Below are positions 1-37,514 of a stretch of 38,967 bases of DNA, one piece after another; position 1 is the stretch's first letter; each line of letters begins with the position of its first letter. This DNA is from Atractiella rhizophila (taxonomy: Eukaryota): assembly GCA_021432655.1 (NCBI GenBank), contig MU271615.1:1-38967 (forward strand). Direction: 5' to 3'. The notes under the pieces were generated by a model. The model saw only the letters and a list, made by a program, of their open reading frames with translations. It was not told the DNA's origin and made no database searches. The position numbers and the translations under genes are program-made.

Positions 1-1195
1 CGGCAGTAGGAGCAGAAGATGTGGGAGCGAAGGGCCGTTGGAAGAAGTACTCGAATCCTTCCTCTGCAGATAGCGCGCATGTCCAGATCGCTTTCGTTGG
101 AATTGGTGGTGGGACGGTTATACACTGGCCTCTTGTGGGAACGACAGAGTGTGGATGGTTCGAAGCGAGGTGAGGGAGAAGATGTGAGATGTAAGCGTTG
201 GTGGCGTGGACGATGGTCGGTGCACGGATGGATCCTCTGGGAGTGGAACAGGTGTAGATACCGCTTGAAGAGGGCGAGGAGATGGAGGTGCAGGGAGTGT
301 GTGTGTAGAGAGAGAAGTGGAGGAAGGGGAGGGAGGAGGTGAGAAAGAGGATGAAGTCGAAGAGGTGCGATACCAGTTTGCGTGGGAACAGGTTGTTGCC
401 GTCAGGCAGACAGAGTGCGGAATGTATCACTTCCTTCGACGCGCCGAGCTTCTATTCATATCCATCAGCATATCGTATCATCAAGGATCCTGGGCTTGTT
501 GGAGAGAAAACGAAAGCACACATCTTCTACCTGCCTTTCATCCAACCACACTAATCCCTCGACCTCCTTCCTCCCTGCCTCCGTCGCAGCCTCCAACTCC
601 ACTCTCACCTCCTCCGCCTCCTCTCGATTCTTAAAGATCTGCACTCTCCCTCCATTCGCCCAATCCACCTCCTTCTTCAAATTGTTCGTTTCCAAAAAAT
701 CGAGCACCTTGGAAAGCGAATACCTCTCCAAATCCACCGCTTGATGTGCAGCCTCTACACCGTGCTTAGAGGTGCAAGTAGCGAAGCCAAAGCACCCAGT
801 GGGGGCGAGATGGCCACCGTTCCTTCCTGAACGTTCAATCAATCCATCAGCACCTCGAATTTCAAGGAAAAGGGAGAAAACCCACCAGTAGCGCCTGAGC
901 AAAATTCCCTAGCCTCTAACATCGCGATCCTCAGCTTGTCGCCTCGAACTTTGAGCCCCTCGATCCCCCCTCGTCTTTGGAGGAGTTTCGCGAGCTCGTG
1001 CGCAAAGGATACGCCGGTGATTCCGCTCCCGAGGACGAGGATGTCGACTTCGTCGGGAAGGGGACTGTGCTCGCCATGGTTCGCGTGTGGACTAGGGAAT
1101 TCGAGCCAGTAGGATGGTGGAGCTGATGGGTTTGGGAGGGATGACGGTGGGAAGGAGACTGGGAGGGACGAGGCCACGGTTACATAGGATGCCAT
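1..1195 (-). CDS. FAD-dependent oxidoreductase, DAO family (3' end runs off the window)
   Basis: ATG at 1195. Rossmann motif DILVLGSGITG, then MLEAREFCSGATG, intron 827-885, then RNGGH. Later exon reads HATNAYISHLLP...VVPTRGQ...GFEYFFQRP, all typical of fungal DAO-family oxidoreductases. Confidence 0.9.
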
Positions 1196-1332
1196 GTTGG
1201 ATTGTTCTGGAGTCGACAAATTCAAATTGTTGCTCACTATCCGGTAGTTTATGACTAAAGGCATTCAGTCTGTTCTGGAGAATGAAGAACATAATTCTTA
1301 GCTGAGCACTCAAGTTCCCAGCAGCAGCCAAT

Positions 1333-2661
1333 ATGCTGTGCACACGATGCGCTTTCCCATTTACTCTCCACCGTCTCACCCTTCGGCAGTACTCCGTTCT
1401 CCCAGAAGGATCTACCAAGTACGAGTTCCATATTCCTTCGTCCTCAGTCATTCTCACGGCACAATACCGAATAAGTAGGACCCAAAAGAGAAAACGAGAG
1501 GAAGAGAAGGACACCTCAACTATCTCTGTCTGGGAGCCAGAAGAAAAGGAAGAGCTCCCATCCGACGACACAGCTTCCACACGAGGAAGAACCGATAACC
1601 ATCTCGAGCTCCTTTCACCTCGTCCGAACTCGCGGCGCTCAAGCACAAACATAGAATGGTATCGAGCTCCACGGCGGCACCGAACGTCAAGAACCACCGC
1701 GTCATCATCGTCCGGCTCACGCTCAGAGGGAGGAGGTGAACGCAAGTCGGACGTATTTCGACACGCCTTCGAACGCTTCGTCAGTCTCGATGTTGACCCA
1801 GAGCCTAGTCCCACCGCCAATCCACCGCAAGAACATCCCGACCCTGAAAACCACGACAAGTCTCGCCAATGGCTCAAGCTCAAGCCGTGGATTGGTCGAG
1901 AGATGATTCCTACGCTTCAAACGTTGAAGCTTCTTCGGGACCCTGAGCACCAGAAGGCCTTACGGCGAATTCGGGATAAGGAGCGGGAGGCGAAAAGGAA
2001 GTGGCGGAAACGAGTGGATATGAATAATCTTTTCTTGCGCGCTTCAAGGACTTTGCCTGGTTTTCGAGAACCTTTCAATCCTGCACCTCCTTTGAGAGAA
2101 ACCTTTGCAATCGGCATTCAGCTACCTAGATTGCTGACATCACCCCCTGCTTTGAACCTCGCTATGTGGGATCCGAACGATCGTTGGTCCCACAGGATAG
2201 CTCGGATTGATAGGGTTGATCGTGCGCTTCAATATTCCACAAACACAGACACGAAACCAAAGTTCAAAAAGGTGATCGCCTATTTCATCAAGAAGGAAGA
2301 TGCGGAAGATGCGGTCAAGAATGGGTTTCTATTCGAAGGGAAGAGATACGACGCTTGGTGGCCCGACAAACAGTCGGTCAAACAATGCATGCGGTGTCAA
2401 CAACTAAATCATCTCCTCGAAGATTGTAAAAGCCAACATCCGGTCTGCCCGTTCTGCTCAAAACCTCATTCTGCATCCGAATGTAACTTGACGAGGAAAA
2501 TAAAGACGGGATTCACTTGCGCTCTCTGTGGCGGAGATCATCCTTCTTTTCGCAGCTCAAAATGTCCAGTTTGGTGGCAGCATAGGGTGGCTTCGAAGGC
2601 TGCTTTGAGTTCCGAGTTAGCTGTTGATACCCAATCGCATGAATATCATGAGGAATCTTGA
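1333..2661 (+). CDS. Non-LTR retrotransposon ORF1 (Gag-like) related protein with three CCHC zinc knuckles; probably domesticated; putative mitochondrial presequence
   Basis: Open 442-aa frame. C-terminal CMRCQQLNHLLEDC / CPFCSKPHSASEC / CALCGGDHPSFRSSKC (2386-2565), preceded by VIAYFIKKEDAEDAVKNGFLFEG, matches the layout of fungal Tad1-type ORF1. Possible in-frame intron 1419-1478 (GTACGA...CTCAC...GTAG). No endonuclease/RT ORF follows. Confidence 0.7.
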   Translation: MLCTRCAFPFTLHRLTLRQYSVLPEGSTKYEFHIPSSSVILTAQYRISRTQKRKREEEKDTSTISVWEPEEKEELPSDDTASTRGRTDNHLELLSPRPNSRRSSTNIEWYRAPRRHRTSRTTASSSSGSRSEGGGERKSDVFRHAFERFVSLDVDPEPSPTANPPQEHPDPENHDKSRQWLKLKPWIGREMIPTLQTLKLLRDPEHQKALRRIRDKEREAKRKWRKRVDMNNLFLRASRTLPGFREPFNPAPPLRETFAIGIQLPRLLTSPPALNLAMWDPNDRWSHRIARIDRVDRALQYSTNTDTKPKFKKVIAYFIKKEDAEDAVKNGFLFEGKRYDAWWPDKQSVKQCMRCQQLNHLLEDCKSQHPVCPFCSKPHSASECNLTRKIKTGFTCALCGGDHPSFRSSKCPVWWQHRVASKAALSSELAVDTQSHEYHEES

Positions 2662-2790
2662 CTTCTAATTTTTGCACACCCTCATCGTTTGCGCTCCCTG
2701 AAAACAAACATGATGCTATTGCGAAGTGTGTACATGGAAATGGCGAATTGTCCACTGATGTCATCAAAAAAAACAGCGATAACCAGATCT

Positions 2791-5280
2791 CTATGCCCGC
2801 AGGTGAAGCAAAATCTCGTCGGATTTGCCCTGAATCACAGTTAGTTACTGAACAAATATTCTGAAAAAAAGAGAAAACAACCTTGTATCCCAGTTTCTTT
2901 TTCAAGCGTGCAACCTCTAAGTCCTCAAAATATTCATGGAGAGCTCGCGATTGCTGAGATAATCATATCAGCACATAATGTTCAGAACGCTGTAGCGGAA
3001 GAAGAACCTGGTACTTCTTCCTGCTGTTCGCCCACTCCACTTCTTCCTCCTGAATCTGCCTCTTCAACTTCTTGTTCTCCGCCTTCAGCTCCACGAGGGT
3101 CTTCTCCAAACTCGCCTTGGTGGCCTTGCCACCAGTACTGGCGAAGGAAGTAGTGATGGCTGGGAGAATATGAGATTTGAAACATTCTTGAAGACTAGTC
3201 TTGATAGGTTTGCTCAGTGAGGCGGCGTGAGACTGGAAAGCCTTTGTCAGAGCGGCAGCAATAATGGACGACGGGGAGCCTTCTTCCTCAATTCCCATTT
3301 CTGTCTCCAGTTCATTATCAGAAACCAAGCCCGACTTTGACCTTTTCGATTTGGGATTTGACTTTGGAAGGTCTTCAACCTCTTTGCGTTTCTTGCCCTG
3401 GGTCATGGCTAGCTGCGACTCGACCTCGACCACTTTTGACTCTGATCCCTTCCCATTCTTCTTCTCCTTTTTCGCTACTCTCTGAACGGGAGGGACCTGT
3501 TGAGCTTTCGGAACGTTGTTCTGGCGTTGTAACCGTTTCTCTTCTTCATCGACGTCCGATACCTCCTCGGATGGAAGAGAACAATCTACTTTGGACCTTT
3601 TAGCTTTCTTTGGAGGGGACTGGTCGGCTCTCTCCTCTTCATCGTTAGGCGCGTCTCGCGTTTTCCTCTTCAGGTTCCGATTTTTCTGAACAGGAAAGGG
3701 AGGGGATGAATGAAGAGGTTCGAGTTCGAGTTCGACGCCGACACCTGCAATCTTCCTCTTTCGTTTATTTGCGGCGTCTTTCGAACTCGCAGGCCCAGGT
3801 GCTGATTTTGTGACGATGACTTTTTCCTTGTGGCCCACATTTTCTTCCTCTATTCCGTCAGATTGGAGCTTCGAGCTCTTCACTCTCTTCGTAGGCCCGC
3901 CCTCCTCCTCGCCAGCGGCACCCTTCGTCCTTTTCCGCTTTGAACCCGTCTCTTTGTCGTCAGATGCAGCCGACACCTTCTTTGCCTTCTTCCTTAATTC
4001 TCGATCCACCTGTTCATTTTCTTCTTCCTCTTCGAGGGCCTTCTTTTCCTTTCCTGACTTCTTAACAGATATCTCGACCGGCATTTCTGGTTCCTTCTCT
4101 CTAACCTTGCCCTTCCGTTTAGTTTTCTCGACTGAATGTAGATCCCCCTTCACGTCCACGTCTTCATCCTGTTTCCGAAGTTGTTTCTTGCGCGTACCTT
4201 TTCTCGGTTGCTCCTCCACGTCTCCCTCGTCCTCTTCTTCCTCTACCACCTTTCGTTTGCTCCTCGCTCTCTTACTTGGCATCTCCTTCGCGAGAGTAGT
4301 GTCCTCTTTGCTCGTACGGTTCTTTCCCTTTGCCTTCCTTCTCTTCTCTGTCGACTCCCCATTTCCATCACTACCTCCAGCTTCTACAACCTCTACTGGA
4401 GTCAGGCCTCTCTTCCTCTTCGACTTCCCTTCCTTCTCCCCCTTCTTCTTCGATGGCGAGGAAATAGGAGGTCGCACAGTCTCCATCTCTCCAGCCGCCG
4501 TCTTGTTCCTATTCCGGCCCTTACTTGTGGGAGGAGGCGGGCGAACTGTCCCTTCCGAGCTATCGGTCTTCGTGCGCGTTCTGGTCCTCCCGTTTCGCGT
4601 TGTTGGAATTGTGGGCACCTCATCGACCTCGACCTGAGGAGGAGAGTGCGGATTTGTATTTGGATTGCGAGAGGTCGCCGCGTTCGCTGCTGCTCGTGAG
4701 GTGGACGCTGGATGGGGAGGTTCGTCTACCATTAGAGGTGCAGTGGAGAAATCGAAAGAAGCTTCTGTGCCATCTGAATCTGAATCGAACGTTGTATACT
4801 GAGTTCCGGCGGTGTTCTTTCCCACGCGCGCGTTCGTATTCTTTGTAGTGGAGACTGAGGTCTGCTTCTCGCGCTCAATTAGCTTTCTCTTCATGCAAAG
4901 TGATATAGCAAAACGAAAGATGAATAAATAAACGGAGACATGGATATATTGGATCACAGCGTACTTTTGGTGAGTTTGCACGGTTATCAACATTGTGCCC
5001 CTTCAAAGCGCTTGCCGCGTTCGATTTTTGGACGTTTGGCACACCTGGAAGGTGTGTAGGTACTACGTAGTTCTCCCATACCCTATCACCACATCAGAAC
5101 CATAAGTATTAGCGTAAGTAGCTTATGCGAGCAAGGCCGTTTGAGTTGGAACACGGAGAAGACGCACTTGAGATCCCCTTTGATCCGTTTCCTCAGCTTC
5201 TCCTCGTGCGTTAGGATGCGATTTGGGTCTGGAGCAGGCGATTTTCGACGTAAGATGACATTGGGCGAGTCCCAGGGCAT
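2791..5280 (-). CDS. Hypothetical low-complexity Lys/Glu/Arg-rich protein with C-terminal coiled coil, likely nuclear
   Basis: Long ORF 2963-4993 plus spliced small exons: MPWDSPNV...IKGDLK|VWENYVV...NSPK|TSVSTTK... and ...RKKYQ|QSRALHEYFEDLEVARLKKKLGYK|GKSDEILLHLRA*. Many basic NLS-like clusters. Start codon uncertain. Confidence 0.7.
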
Positions 5281-5668
5281 TCCTTACGTCCAACCATGGA
5301 CCGTTAGCTGTGAGCAATGAGCTTCGGAGGGCATACGGATTGGAGACATGTGGACATCCATCTTGCCAATTTCTCACTAATTAACCGAGTTATCTGCACT
5401 GTCCAGCTCCGAATGCCCTGAGCCTAGCCCCCAAACACGTCCTTGTGAACTTGGAGGTCTCGATCGCGAGTAACTGTCAGAGGAGTAACAATGCGACGAC
5501 GCGCGCTCACCCGCGCCCTCTGCGCTTCGGCCACGTAAACGGATTGAGAAATTCAGTGACTTCATTCTTCGACCACTTTACTTTTCTTCGCCACTCTCCA
5601 ACAGCTACCCACTGTAGCCTACCACTTCTTAGGAGACCCTTACTAACTCAGAGATATTGGTTGCAAAA

Positions 5669-6712
5669 ATGTCGTTCCTGGGTCTTGATTTCAGTTGGTT
5701 GTGGAATATTCTTGCCTCTTTGGGTACGTCGCTCCTTTGCCACAGTCACAGTAATGGTGGCTCTGTGGGGTTTGCGTTTAGGCATCCTTTGGAGAGAGAA
5801 CTGACATTTCTCTGGTAGGGCTCATGAATAAGAATGCAAAGATTCTCTTCTTGGGGCTCGATAACGCGTTTGTCCCGCCTTCTCCTCTTCCAAACTTTTC
5901 TTACTTGTACCGGTGCTTCTAGCGGAAAGACTGTGCGCTTTTTTTCTGGTATTCGCTGTTTGGGGGTATCGAGAGAGTGAATGGGTGATTGACAGACCTT
6001 ACTCCACATGTTGAAGAACGACCGACTGGCTACCCTGCAACCGACCCTCCACCCAAGTGCGCTTTACTCTTAGACTCTTCAAAGGTGTAACTGAGCCGCT
6101 CTCTACTGGGTTATAGCGTCAGAGGAACTGGCTATTGGGAACATTAAGTTCACCACATATGACCTTGGAGGACACGAGATTGGTATGTCTTTATCTTTCC
6201 TTCTTCCTCTCTAGATTGTGTCGATCAATTGCTCATAACGTGTGCTGTGTTTCAGCTCGCCGACTATGGAAAGACTACTTTCCCGAAGTCGACGGTATCG
6301 TCTTCCTCGTCGATAGTGCAGACAACGAACGGTTCCGAGAGTCCAAGCAGGAATTAGATAACCTGCTGAGCATCGAACAGCTTAGCAATGTGCCCTTCCT
6401 CATTCTCGGAAACAAGATAGACGCGATGGGAGCCGTGAGCGAGGATGAACTGAGACACCACTTGGGAATGTATCAGACCACTGGAAAGGTGCGTCTTCTG
6501 GTTTATTCTGCAAGTAAATGGAAACCTGAATTAATTTGTTTGTGGTGATAGGGAAAAGTACCTCTCAATGATATTAGACCTATTGAGATCTTCATGTGCT
6601 CTGTAGTGATGAGGCAGGGGTATGGTGAAGGTATGTCCTCCGTCTCCGCTTCTTTTACTTTACTCATGGAGTCGCCGAATCAGGCTTCCGCTGGCTGGCA
6701 CAATACATCTAA
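5669..6712 (+). CDS. SAR1: Small COPII GTPase Sar1
   Basis: Spliced: [94 protein letters not shown]...LGNKID...[20 protein letters not shown]. Confidence 0.97.
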
Positions 6713-7003
6713 ACCCGAACTCCTCTCCGAATCCACTGGCTTGAGATTTCCTTACTGTCCATTTAAACCTCATACATTTCCATTTTCTCTTCATTCTTGT
6801 CATCGTTGTCGTCGGTCGGGTTCAGACTCGTTGCATGGTTCGCCAACTTATTCTTTCTTTCTCTTCTCGTTGAAGTTCGAGGTGACGTTCATGATATCTT
6901 TATGATTTACATGAACCAGAATCGATAAACGCTCTAACTCCACATCCCTCCTGGGAACCTTTTATCTTTGAGTCGCCGACATATTCCAATGTAAGGTTTG
7001 CGT

Positions 7004-35897: not shown

Positions 35898-37514
35898 ATG
35901 GTCCTTAGTGCGTGTCCCTTAATAAATCATGAGGCAGACGAAGAATTGACTGCAAACGCGAGATCAGTCAACAACCTCAAATTCTCCTGCCAATCCTGTA
36001 TTTCAGGTCACCGGTCCTCCAACTGTCAACACCTCGAGCGCACTCTCTACGAAATCCGGAAAAAAGGACGTCCGATTTCCCAATGCGTTGATTGCAGGCA
36101 GGCAAGGAAGGGAAAGGGGATCCACGCGAAATGCGTCTGCGAGAATGCAGTGAGAGAGGTGGAGAGGGATCTTATCGTTCTCAAGAATGGAATTAGCGAC
36201 GCGAGTGTAGAAGGTGAGGACAATCCGTTTGAGAAACTGGGACTTTTTCCTCCCACCACCGCGACAAGCCTCTCCGCGGCAAATCAATCATCACCACCGA
36301 CATCTGGCACCGCCAACACTGCCATTCCACAAAGGGCAACGACAAAGGTGTCCATCACCTCCTTGCTCAATCCATGTTCCTGCGCAACCAGCGGATTATG
36401 CGACTGTGGAACACGCTCTGCCATACTTGGGAAGATGACACCAGCTCAGAAGAGGAAGCTCATTGCCGCGAAGCGAGCGATGAAGCGCGCAGAGAAGGAC
36501 AAGATCAGATCCTCATCCATCTCTGCTTCAGTGACTCCCGCTCCTCCTGCCACGAACGCACCTGCGGTTTCCGCAGGCTGCTGTTGCAAGAAATCCGCCG
36601 AGCCATCCCCTACTCCTGCTCCTACCTCTCCTGCTCCCGCACCGTTAAAACTGCCGGAGCTCGACTCACCCACGTCGACTGTGTCCTTCTCTCTCTCCAA
36701 TGATTCTCTCCCTCCTACCCCCGCGCCAGGATCAACGCTGTGCTGGTGTGGCGATGCATGCGCTTGTGTAGGATGCAAGGTTCACGACCCTCTGGGAATG
36801 AAGAAAGATAGGAATGGGAAGGGACGACTTGGCTGTGGAGGACAGGGTATTGAGCCCATTCCTGAGATGGCGGAGGGGATGGTCCTCCCAGACTTGGTGG
36901 GAGCGGATGCTGATGGGCTGCGGCGTTTCTTCTGGACCGAAGGAGAGGAGCTGGCGCCTCTTGGTGCTGTTGCGTCTGCAGTTGAAGTCGAGCTCGAAAA
37001 TGGCGCGAGAGATTCAGGAGGAGGGAATGAGAGGATCACACGTGCGAGGAGGAGCTCGTCCATTCGCCTTCCCAGTCTTAGCACACTGAATCTAGGAGAT
37101 CTTGCCAGTGGCAACTTTGAGAATATCCCAACCGAAGAGTGGAAGGCTTTGGGACGTCTCGTCGAAGTAGATCACGGTATTGCGTCTCAGTTCCCTCGGC
37201 TCTTGCCTCCTCTTACGAACAATTCCGAGAACACAGTACTCCAACCTCTCCCTCCGATCTTGGGACAACCATTGAAACCGCTAGACGGTGCTGGGGGTTG
37301 TTGTGGCTCTAGAGACACTGAAGTTAAGACGGGAGCGGACACCAGGCCACCTGGTGTTGGTTGTTGCAGCCTCGATGTTGGGATGGATATCGATATCGAT
37401 GATAATCTGCCTGATGATGGGTTGTGCGATGAAGACGCGGAAGGGGAGGATGATCCGGACTTTCTCATGGCTTGCAATTGTGGTGCTGGTTGCCCTTGTG
37501 GAACGAACAAATAA
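35898..37514 (+). CDS. Copper-fist transcription factor (Ace1/Mac1/Cuf1 family)
   Basis: After removing intron 35908-35967: MVLINNLKFSCQSCISGHRSSNCQHLERTLYEIRKKGRPISQCVDCR...HAKCVC. Internal CWCGDACACVGCKVH (CxCx3CxCx2Cx2H) motif. Confidence 0.92.
   Translation: MVLSACPLINHEADEELTANARSVNNLKFSCQSCISGHRSSNCQHLERTLYEIRKKGRPISQCVDCRQARKGKGIHAKCVCENAVREVERDLIVLKNGISDASVEGEDNPFEKLGLFPPTTATSLSAANQSSPPTSGTANTAIPQRATTKVSITSLLNPCSCATSGLCDCGTRSAILGKMTPAQKRKLIAAKRAMKRAEKDKIRSSSISASVTPAPPATNAPAVSAGCCCKKSAEPSPTPAPTSPAPAPLKLPELDSPTSTVSFSLSNDSLPPTPAPGSTLCWCGDACACVGCKVHDPLGMKKDRNGKGRLGCGGQGIEPIPEMAEGMVLPDLVGADADGLRRFFWTEGEELAPLGAVASAVEVELENGARDSGGGNERITRARRSSSIRLPSLSTLNLGDLASGNFENIPTEEWKALGRLVEVDHGIASQFPRLLPPLTNNSENTVLQPLPPILGQPLKPLDGAGGCCGSRDTEVKTGADTRPPGVGCCSLDVGMDIDIDDNLPDDGLCDEDAEGEDDPDFLMACNCGAGCPCGTNK

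Follow-up and report, generated by a model that had tools for sequence, protein, structure and literature searches.

Can a protein descended from a retrotransposon be directed to mitochondria by its own first residues? This question is raised by a gene of Atractiella rhizophila, a little-studied root-associated fungus of the Pucciniomycotina, on a source contig that was analysed over its entire length of 38,967 nt (hereafter, the window). An initial annotation of this DNA had described a transposon-derived nucleic-acid chaperone with an N-terminus resembling a mitochondrial presequence. What our analysis establishes firmly is unremarkable, namely a correct model of an orphan gene that is expressed and derives from ORF1, and we consider it likely that this gene is a stand-alone, intron-bearing, transcribed LINE ORF1 descendant whose N-terminus holds no dedicated sorting signal.

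Gene structure and transcription

The gene is spliced and transcribed (features in Table 1). A public gene model from the same contig (P0002, a hypothetical protein of A. rhizophila with 423 aa) shares its ATG at 1333, and the reading frame is open over 442 codons before splicing. Contigs of run X2 contain GT..AG joints on plus-strand genes and CT..AC joints on minus-strand genes; X2 was taken as RNA from these spliced joints alone, its record having no RNA annotation. One X2 contig of 725 nt is unbroken across 885–1418, including the ATG, and run X1 contains an identical 151-nt piece at 2314–2464.

Table 1 Coordinates of the ORF1-like gene, its predicted protein features and its upstream surroundings in the window
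Feature	Position	Strand	Basis
Divergent FAD-dependent oxidoreductase (DAO) gene, probable start codon 1195	2..1195	-	Pfam DAO, CT..AC joints
Two short uORFs, 1251–1301 (16 codons) and 1282–1305 (7 codons)	1251..1305	+	sequence
ORF of the ORF1-like gene	1333..2661	+	translation
Exon 1, 28 codons + 2 nt	1333..1418	+	gene model and RNA contigs; ATG 1333, A at -3
Presequence-like N-terminus, codons 1–21, MLCTRCAFPFTLHRLTLRQYS	1333..1395	+	translation
Intron, 57 nt, GT..AG spliceosomal, in frame	1419..1475	+	joint 1418->1476 in RNA contigs of run X2; 19 codons absent from P0002
Exon 2, ends with stop codon	1476..2661	+	spliced product of 423 aa
Basic cluster RTQKRKR, residues 30–36, putatively NLS-like	1477..1497	+	sequence pattern
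Long confident helix, P0002 176–221, candidate oligomerisation helix	1915..2052	+	AlphaFold2, pLDDT ~81–91
Second basic cluster AKRKWRKRV, residues 201–209, NLS-like, inside the long helix	1990–2016	+	sequence pattern
RRM-like beta-alpha-beta region, P0002 270–323	2197..2358	+	AlphaFold2, VIA-align, Foldseek
Three CCHC knuckles (CX2CX4HX4C, CX2CX3HX4C, CX2CX3HX7C)	2386..2565	+	alignment, profile

A true start codon further downstream, which the initial annotation had named as a finding that would speak against its reading, found no support. The ATG at 1333 is the first start downstream of an in-frame TGA (1303–1305) and stands in the context GCCAATATGC, with A at -3, and in frame with it the next Met follows at residue 172 in the spliced product (191 unspliced). 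Over 1333–2184 (283 codons), the gene frame is open and the other two frames contain 8 and 10 stops. A start at Met172 was rejected because the upstream frame is open and an upstream indel is in-frame, and so was an extra upstream exon, since the RNA contig is continuous over 885–1418 and has no other joint there. Should transcription begin upstream of both, the two uORFs would be part of the 5' UTR.

Homology to ORF1 of non-LTR retrotransposons

The protein shares ancestry with the ORF1 of genuine non-LTR retrotransposons, in agreement with its earlier description as ORF1-like and transposon-derived. Two metagenomic elements (L001 and L002), reached from a single relative (P0152), encode an ORF1 that is followed directly by an APE/RT-type ORF2 with Exo_endo_phos and RVT_1 domains. 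Residues 295–394 of P0002 aligned with residues 347–445 of the L001 ORF1 (30% identity over ~100 residues, E 2e-15), and the L002 ORF1 was matched at E 2e-7. An exhaustive phmmer search of 1.84 billion representatives gave 427 matches at E<=1e-3, of which the best 150 were all confined to query residues ~268–442; the first ~290 residues had no relatives among these representatives. Scanning 46 longer matches revealed many with zf-CCHC, three with PRE_C2HC above the cut-off and one with RVT_1. Longer or fused forms of P0002 270–423 were not found at E<=1e-3, and a longer-form search with the family alignment returned one 746-aa protein without Pfam domains, each of these being weak evidence.

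Type I ORF1 proteins (ORF1p) carry an RRM immediately upstream of CCHC knuckles and occur in the I, Jockey, R1, Tad1, plant L1 and L2 clades (PMC4120745). The predicted protein resembles them in its three C-terminal CCHC knuckles with all ligands kept, which a putative RRM-like fold (with modest scores) precedes, and in a disordered, poorly conserved N-terminal part. In the AlphaFold2 model, residues 1–173 are disordered and are followed by the long helix (176–221), the RRM-like region (270–323; pLDDT up to ~91), the knuckles (333–392) and a second helix (393–415), with a strand at 130–134 modelled into the sheet of the RRM-like region. All of the chains listed by VIA-align (50/50) were titled RRM or RNA-binding domain, at modest Z scores of 5.3–6.0. 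Foldseek found nothing in the PDB at E<=0.001 and returned weak RRM matches (best E 0.076), Pfam gave no family for the protein itself at E<=1, RRM included, and a sequence search of the PDB yielded a single chance-level row (E 0.57). The 12 zinc ligands (C333, C336, H341, C346, C353, C356, H360, C365, C377, C380, H384 and C392) are all invariant or at least 90% conserved among 51 aligned sequences. The family profile also matched the paired CCHC knuckles of the HIV-1 nucleocapsid (NCp7) at E 9.4e-8; this likeness covers only ~45 residues, and unlike NCp7, the fungal protein has no Gag capsid part and possesses an RRM-like fold and a third knuckle.

Given this layout, the protein is most likely a single-stranded nucleic-acid binder or chaperone. 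The RRM-like domain and the three zinc knuckles would grip RNA, the long helix may serve oligomerisation, and the long, disordered, Arg/Ser-rich and fast-changing N-terminal half could make unspecific charge contacts. A basic, disordered and fast-evolving N-terminus is also described for human L1ORF1p (PMC5940361). The two KR-rich clusters would suggest a nuclear or cytoplasmic RNP location as the default, although pattern-based NLS calls are frequently false positives (PMC7723863).

A solo gene among host genes

Reverse transcriptase, endonuclease and other transposon families were absent from all 115 stop-to-stop ORFs of at least 100 aa in the window (0/115), and tblastn of the L001 and L002 ORF2s against the window gave a best E of 0.79. 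The gene is therefore ORF1-derived and located outside any element on the contig. It differs from type I ORF1p genes, which belong directly upstream of ORF2, in having neither an ORF2 nor a remnant of one on the contig, in its spliceosomal intron and in its close packing between host genes: the divergent DAO gene starts only 138 nt from ATG 1333 and a convergent gene lies ~300 nt away. It also has no detectable paralogue or orthologue in the protein collections; protein sets often omit transposon copies, and the lack of paralogues is hence weak evidence. Ordinary genes make up the neighbourhood (DAO, Arf, Metallophos, PAP2, Acyl_transf_3, AMP-binding, FmdA, prefoldin and copper-fist). The gene thus looks stand-alone and host-style, being spliced, expressed and without ORF2 on the contig, and we regard it as a solo, type I ORF1p-derived, putatively RNA-binding gene that is probably domesticated. 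On the side away from the DAO gene, it is flanked by a Lys/Glu-rich neighbour.

Eight allelic differences between X2 and the window were listed within the ORF, with 38 further differences across the 7 kb. The knuckle region has four of the eight, three synonymous and one a replacement (I390M), whereas all four listed in the N-terminal half are non-synonymous. The N-terminal half also has a 3-nt deletion that keeps the frame, and codon-position GC of the N-terminal stretch shows no clear coding bias. On the eight listed differences, this is a hint of constraint in the knuckle region only. A 1-nt indel between X2 and the window was also seen at 1199, just outside the coding part of the DAO gene.

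These data bear on whether the gene serves the host at all. It may instead be a decaying, transcribed LINE remnant whose ORF2 was deleted, or an ORF1 fragment joined by chance to a young, non-conserved coding stretch at its 5' end, having no host function and an N-terminus that is meaningless basic sequence. The relative-free first ~290 residues, the disorder predicted up to residue 173, the protein-altering differences and indel of the N-terminal half with its unbiased codon-position GC, and the orphan status of the protein at the gene level are all consistent with such an origin. Decay is harder to reconcile with a frame open for 442 codons, when the first 283 codons bring 8 and 10 stops in the other two frames, with an indel that stays in frame, with 12/12 intact zinc ligands and with three of four silent differences in the knuckle region; nor is a GT..AG intron expected from a retro-copied ORF1. 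Because LINE copies are usually 5'-truncated, an ORF1-only copy without a trace of ORF2 would moreover be an unusual remnant. We hold a remnant or chance fusion to be unlikely, and infer that the ORF1-derived gene probably serves the host.

The N-terminal sequence pattern

Translation of 1333–1395 returned the N-terminus that the initial annotation had reported, MLCTRCAFPFTLHRLTLRQYS, with three Arg, no acidic residue and the ending R-x-Y-S (R18-Q19-Y20|S21). Its Arg residues are at positions 5, 14 and 18 and it has one His (basic residues at 5, 13, 14 and 18); the stretch is rich in Leu and Thr, its net charge is +3, and residues 1–24 contain no Asp or Glu, the first acidic residue of the protein being E25. 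The protein matches R-x-[FYL]-[SA] just once, at R18-Q19-Y20-S21, and this is a pattern match only. Matrix presequences are described as 20–60 residues long (PMC7723863), and under the R-3 rule MPP cuts two residues past an Arg and Icp55 then trims one Tyr, Leu or Phe, exposing Ser, Ala or Thr (PMC7723863, PMC8847149), which is the rule that had been invoked for this N-terminus. Residues 1–20 could accordingly be a cleavable matrix presequence, putatively cut by MPP after Q19 and trimmed of Y20 by Icp55 to a mature start at S21, so that an ORF1-derived RNA chaperone would have been retargeted to mitochondria, with a nuclear or cytosolic pool possible. In composition the fit is good, comprising an Arg-rich, acid-free stretch whose putative length of 20 lies at the lower limit, an ending that follows the R-2/R-3 pattern (R-x|Y/L/F|S/A/T) with Tyr removed and Ser exposed, and a well-supported, transcribed ATG. 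We nevertheless consider a presequence quite improbable, for the reasons that follow.

The rarity of this pattern was assessed with two definitions, both chosen after the sequence was seen: a strict one (no Asp or Glu in 24 residues, at least three Arg, and R-x-[FYL]-[SA] within residues 6–40) and a loose one (no Asp or Glu in 20 residues, at least three Arg or Lys). In random N-termini the strict pattern is rare, which favours a presequence, at 0.12% with a generic composition and 0.23% with the protein's own composition; the loose pattern appears in 3.8–5.2%. Yet when all six frames of the window were surveyed, which contain 121 ATG-started ORFs of at least 60 aa, this one included, the strict pattern was found in two and the loose pattern in ten, leaving 1/120 and 9/120 for the other ORFs, which are most probably non-coding for the most part. 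None of the 135 Met-started relatives has the strict pattern (0/135), so that a functional presequence would be a lineage-specific gain, and no orthologue was found in which its conservation could be followed. Since the protein is Arg-rich (10.6%) and has two more acid-free runs of 23–25 residues, one of them with six basic residues, its N-terminus does not stand out by being basic and free of acidic residues. The N-terminal pattern is thus only moderately beyond chance, with thresholds that are post hoc.

A positively charged amphiphilic helix is a well-characterised feature of presequences (PMC7723863), and neither of two approaches pointed to one. The maximum helical hydrophobic moment was 0.45 for an 11-residue window, 0.40 for 14 residues and 0.26 for 18, and 54–68% of 5000 same-residue shuffles reached the observed moment, so that no amphiphilicity beyond that of the composition was found in this crude test with a single hydrophobicity scale. 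AlphaFold2 modelled no helix at the N-terminus (pLDDT 38–44). The receptor motif of presequences has the strict form hydrophobic-x-x-hydrophobic-hydrophobic, and this form is absent from the N-terminus. A search of the ESM Atlas with residues 1–60 gave no usable match, and the Atlas holds no model of the protein. By the design rules for synthetic targeting signals in TargetMITO (basic residues every 3–5 positions, net charge of at least 8, ending in R-x or R-x-Y; PMC13684279), which are meant for signals of 40–120 residues and are not a classifier, the ending fits and the charge and regular spacing do not. A signal peptide was dismissed by eye, from the missing hydrophobic core.

The likeness to substrates of MPP and Icp55 (PMC7723863, PMC8847149) is therefore one of residue content and ending, set against a low net charge, amphiphilicity at chance level and no conservation, and the mitochondrial reading of the N-terminus is one of composition alone, with import putative. 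The two NLS-like clusters downstream also count against it. Most simply, the basic, acid-free first 24 residues would be the start of the disordered basic region. This ordinary explanation has its own cost, because it leaves the presequence composition together with R-x-Y|S to chance at ~0.1–1%. A still fuller proposal holds that a basidiomycete domesticated a type I ORF1p (RRM plus three CCHC knuckles) as an intron-bearing gene with a short R-3 presequence, the product acting as a mitochondrial RNA chaperone (in RNA processing, intron splicing or nucleoid/RNA packaging) and perhaps also in the nucleus; we judge this to be quite improbable. Mitochondrial targeting of a retrotransposon ORF1p or a domesticated derivative was not found in the literature searched on the topic, and import of the A. 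rhizophila protein would take a product of transposon origin to a place not previously seen as its destination.

Relation to other genes derived from LINE ORF1

For the favoured reading as a stand-alone LINE ORF1 descendant, two families provide precedents. L1TD1 is a mammalian gene domesticated from LINE-1 ORF1p (PMC4161310, PMC11014241, PMC11925450), and like it, the fungal gene was made from a LINE ORF1 and has kept its predicted RNA-binding domains, with a host role that is putative here. The two differ in type and distribution: L1TD1 is of type II (coiled coil-RRM-CTD) with orthologues across mammals, whereas the A. rhizophila gene is of type I, fungal and so far an orphan. If it serves its host, the gene would be the fungal equivalent of L1TD1 and an uncommon case of LINE ORF1 domestication, with the RRM-plus-knuckle layout in place of the mammalian L1 one, and it would then offer a way to study how the RNA chaperones of transposons are put to new use, for instance in RNP biology or the control of transposons. 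In fungi, a precedent for coding genes born of LINE ORF1 is the EKA family (AVRk1/AVRa10) of Blumeria graminis, effectors that arose from part of a LINE ORF1 and have more than 1350 homologues tied to LINE copies (PMC4641428). Unlike EKA, the A. rhizophila gene stands as a single gene on a transposon-free contig and has kept its nucleic-acid-binding knuckles.

Homology of the ORF1-like protein

A Pfam search of the ORF1-like protein returned no family. Exhaustive phmmer searching of 1.84 billion representatives gave 427 matches at E<=1e-3; apart from P0002, the public protein model of this gene, none lay at or below 1e-10, and the best 150 of the 427 were all confined to query residues about 268–442. 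On these searches, the first ~290 residues appear to be an orphan. Among 46 longer matches that were scanned, many carried zf-CCHC, three had PRE_C2HC above the cut-off, and one had RVT_1.

The DNA around relatives was retrieved using P0152, a member of the best match's cluster, and two metagenomic loci (L001 and L002) were obtained. In both, an ORF1 (588 and 511 aa) directly precedes an ORF2 in which Exo_endo_phos, Exo_endo_phos_2, and RVT_1 were identified; both are bona fide non-LTR retrotransposons. Their ORF1-ORF2 junctions are compact, typical of bicistronic LINEs: the ORFs overlap in L001 (1900–1921; the ORF1 stop lies 22 nt past the ORF2 start), and in L002 (1874–1904) ORF2 begins 30 nt past the ORF1 stop. 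P0002 residues 295–394 aligned to the L001 ORF1 with 30% identity (E 2e-15), spanning all three knuckles, and P0002 matched the L002 ORF1 at E 2e-7. In a 51-sequence alignment, the knuckles (CX2CX4HX4C, CX2CX3HX4C, and CX2CX3HX7C) have 12/12 zinc ligands invariant or at least 90% conserved, and the family profile matched HIV-1 nucleocapsid (E 9.4e-8).

The AlphaFold2 model of P0002 has a mean pLDDT of 62. Foldseek gave weak matches, nearly all of them RRMs (best E 0.076), and all 50 matches listed by VIA-align are titled RRM or RNA-binding domain (Z 5.3–6.0), which supports, but does not prove, a predicted RRM. Type I ORF1p, which occurs in clades that include I, Jockey, R1, and Tad1, is described as being defined by an RRM followed immediately by CCHC knuckles (PMC4120745). 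Because the RRM-like region precedes the knuckles in this same layout, the name 'ORF1-like' proposed in the initial annotation is supported, together with the alignments to both relatives and the conserved knuckles.

Features of the ORF1-like gene, its predicted protein, and neighboring genes
Feature	Position	Strand	Description
Disordered part	P0002 1-173		AlphaFold2 model
Confident helix	P0002 176-221		AlphaFold2 model
Beta-alpha-beta elements	P0002 270-323		AlphaFold2 model
CCHC knuckles	P0002 333-392		AlphaFold2 model
C-terminal-side helix	P0002 393-415		AlphaFold2 model
uORF, first	1251-1301	+	16 codons, before ATG 1333
uORF, second	1282-1305	+	7 codons, before ATG 1333, in frame with main ORF
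Intron of ORF1-like gene	1419-1475	+	57 nt, GT..AG; the 19 codons absent from P0002
DAO oxidoreductase gene	probable ATG 1195	-	divergent to ORF1-like gene, 138 nt from ATG 1333
Convergent neighbor	2963-4993	-	676 aa, Lys/Glu/Ser-rich, low-complexity, without Pfam family
Arf-family small GTPase gene	5700-6900	+	at least six short introns
Copper-fist protein	35898-37514	+	538 aa, copper-fist DNA-binding domain (E 9e-18)

Gene model and start codon

The window is a complete contig (38,967 nt) from Atractiella rhizophila, a fungus of the Pucciniomycotina. The sole close protein match of the ORF (1333..2661, plus strand, 442 codons) is P0002, 'hypothetical protein BT69DRAFT_1287335 [Atractiella rhizophila]', which is the same protein with 19 codons fewer (423 aa). 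Over the 7 kb compared, contigs of sequencing run X2 have GT..AG joints in plus-strand genes and CT..AC joints in minus-strand genes; X2 has the character of RNA data, and it contains the 1418->1476 splice joint of the ORF1-like gene.

ATG 1333 (A at -3) was accepted as the start because no other start separates it from the upstream in-frame TGA (1303–1305), it lies inside a single 725-nt X2 contig that spans 885–1418 unbroken (contigs of this kind do not locate the transcription start), the first 283 codons of the frame are open, with 8 and 10 stops in the two other frames, and a 3-nt deletion polymorphism at 1700 preserves the frame. A true start farther downstream, which the initial annotation had named as a possible objection, would fall at the next in-frame Met, which is residue 172 after splicing and 191 in the unspliced ORF; the open upstream frame and the in-frame deletion speak against it, and it was set aside. 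The second uORF ends 27 nt before ATG 1333. Both uORFs may lie in the leader, in which case they could damp or regulate translation.

A solo gene rather than an element

None of the 115 stop-to-stop ORFs of at least 100 aa in the window matches a reverse transcriptase, endonuclease, integrase, or other transposon family. When the window was searched by tblastn, the best match of the two ORF2 proteins had an E of 0.79, and 2272–2571 was the sole region matching the ORF1 proteins. The window genes are ordinary (DAO, Arf, Metallophos, PAP2, Acyl_transf_3, Glyco_trans_2_3, AMP-binding, formamidase, prefoldin, copper-fist, and adh_short), and the gene is flanked by the divergent gene upstream and by a convergent gene about 300 nt downstream. 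No paralog emerged when 5.8 billion clusters were searched by k-mers, and no ortholog was present in the protein collections searched. A second sequencing run, X1, carries 151 nt of the knuckle region without a difference. Eight X2 differences are listed within the ORF, a small sample beyond which 38 more occur across 7 kb. The four in the N-terminal half all change the protein (S119T, H144Q, A162P, and N163S), and three of the four in the knuckle region are silent, the fourth being I390M.

Taken together, the missing ORF2 and transposon matches, the spliced intron, the neighbors, the RNA runs, and the allelic differences point to a solo, expressed, ORF1-derived gene that has kept its C-terminal nucleic-acid-binding part. 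The pattern also points to drift in the N-terminal half. Since the gene is not upstream of an ORF2 on this contig, it is an ORF1-derived gene and not part of an element, and domestication is likely. It is predicted to descend from, and work like, type I ORF1p, but differs in having no ORF2 downstream on the contig. L1TD1 is likewise described as a domesticated ORF1p, although from the type II L1 of mammals (PMC4161310, PMC11014241), whereas the A. rhizophila gene is predicted to be type I; the Blumeria EKA effectors are reported as a LINE ORF1-derived fungal precedent (PMC4641428). The locus is an expressed, spliced, solo LINE-ORF1-derived putative RNA-binding gene.

The N-terminus and proposed mitochondrial import

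The initial annotation proposed that the protein may be imported into mitochondria via a presequence-like N-terminus. Its reading of residues 1–21 (MLCTRCAFPFTLHRLTLRQYS) was exact, with three Arg (5, 14, and 18), no acidic residue before E25, and an R-x-Y-S end; R18-Q-Y-S21 is the sole R-x-[FYL]-[SA] in the protein. The R-3 rule was also cited correctly: MPP is described as cleaving two residues after Arg, and Icp55 as trimming one destabilizing Y/L/F to expose S/A/T (PMC7723863, PMC8847149). The same sources describe presequences as 20–60 residues long, Arg-rich, and acid-poor, with positively charged amphiphilicity as a well-characterized feature.

Composition and cut-site pattern agree with this description and, by naive likelihood, would alone give sizeable odds of import. 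Amphiphilicity, however, is missing: the maximal helical hydrophobic moments (0.45, 0.40, and 0.26 in windows of 11, 14, and 18 residues) were reached or exceeded in 54–68% of cases when these 24 residues were shuffled 5000 times, and the AlphaFold2 model has no helix at the N-terminus (pLDDT 38–44). The putative presequence is also short and its charge low (net +3; His at 13 in addition to the three Arg). A strict pattern (no D/E in 24 residues, at least three Arg, R-x-[FYL]-[SA] in residues 6–40) occurred in 0.12–0.23% of random N-termini and a loose one (no D/E in 20, at least three R/K) in 3.8–5.2%, but both were defined post hoc, after sequence inspection, and these rarities flatter the pattern. 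Among 121 ATG-started ORFs of at least 60 aa in six frames of the window, two (one being the ORF1-like ORF) had the strict pattern and 10 the loose one. The protein is 10.6% Arg, with further acid-free basic runs of 23–25 residues elsewhere. The N-terminal pattern is not a family trait (strict 0 and loose 9 of 135 Met-started relatives).

Two KR-rich clusters, RTQKRKR (30–36) and AKRKWRKRV (201–209), look like nuclear localization signals and count against import, although such patterns are described as unreliable (PMC7723863). The transposon ancestry of the protein weighs the same way; for human L1 ORF1p, a positively charged, fast-evolving N-terminus is reported as normal (PMC5940361). Our limited literature search, which does not prove absence, found no report of mitochondrial targeting of ORF1p or domesticated retrotransposon proteins. 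Given the missing amphiphilicity, low charge, short length, NLS-like clusters, transposon ancestry, and post hoc pattern, we regard import as improbable, and the mitochondrial interpretation is weakly disfavored.

Neighboring genes and allelic variation

The 725-nt X2 contig adjoins both the DAO joint 825->885 (CT..AC) and the ORF1-like joint (GT..AG). Its continuity across a DAO exon and ORF1-like exon 1 hints at a possible head-to-head overlap of the two transcripts, although a contig spanning two genes is no proof of a single transcript. Compared to window positions 1–7000, 68 X2 contigs were at least 99% alike, 28 were 95–99% alike, and 10 were 90–95% alike, with in-frame 3-nt indels at 1700, 3464, 3540, and 4283. 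Such differences point to a second haplotype or strain and could serve to test alleles for selection along the contig.

The convergent neighbor is transcribed and spliced (CT..AC joints 2828->2881, 2953->3008, and 4864->4965), and these joints place its true 3' end beyond the plain ORF, near the ORF1-like 3' end. The Arf gene has by far the deepest X2 coverage (contig word depth in thousands), and its contigs are also spliced in X1, which therefore holds RNA of A. rhizophila or a very close fungus. The copper-fist protein is a candidate copper-responsive transcription factor.
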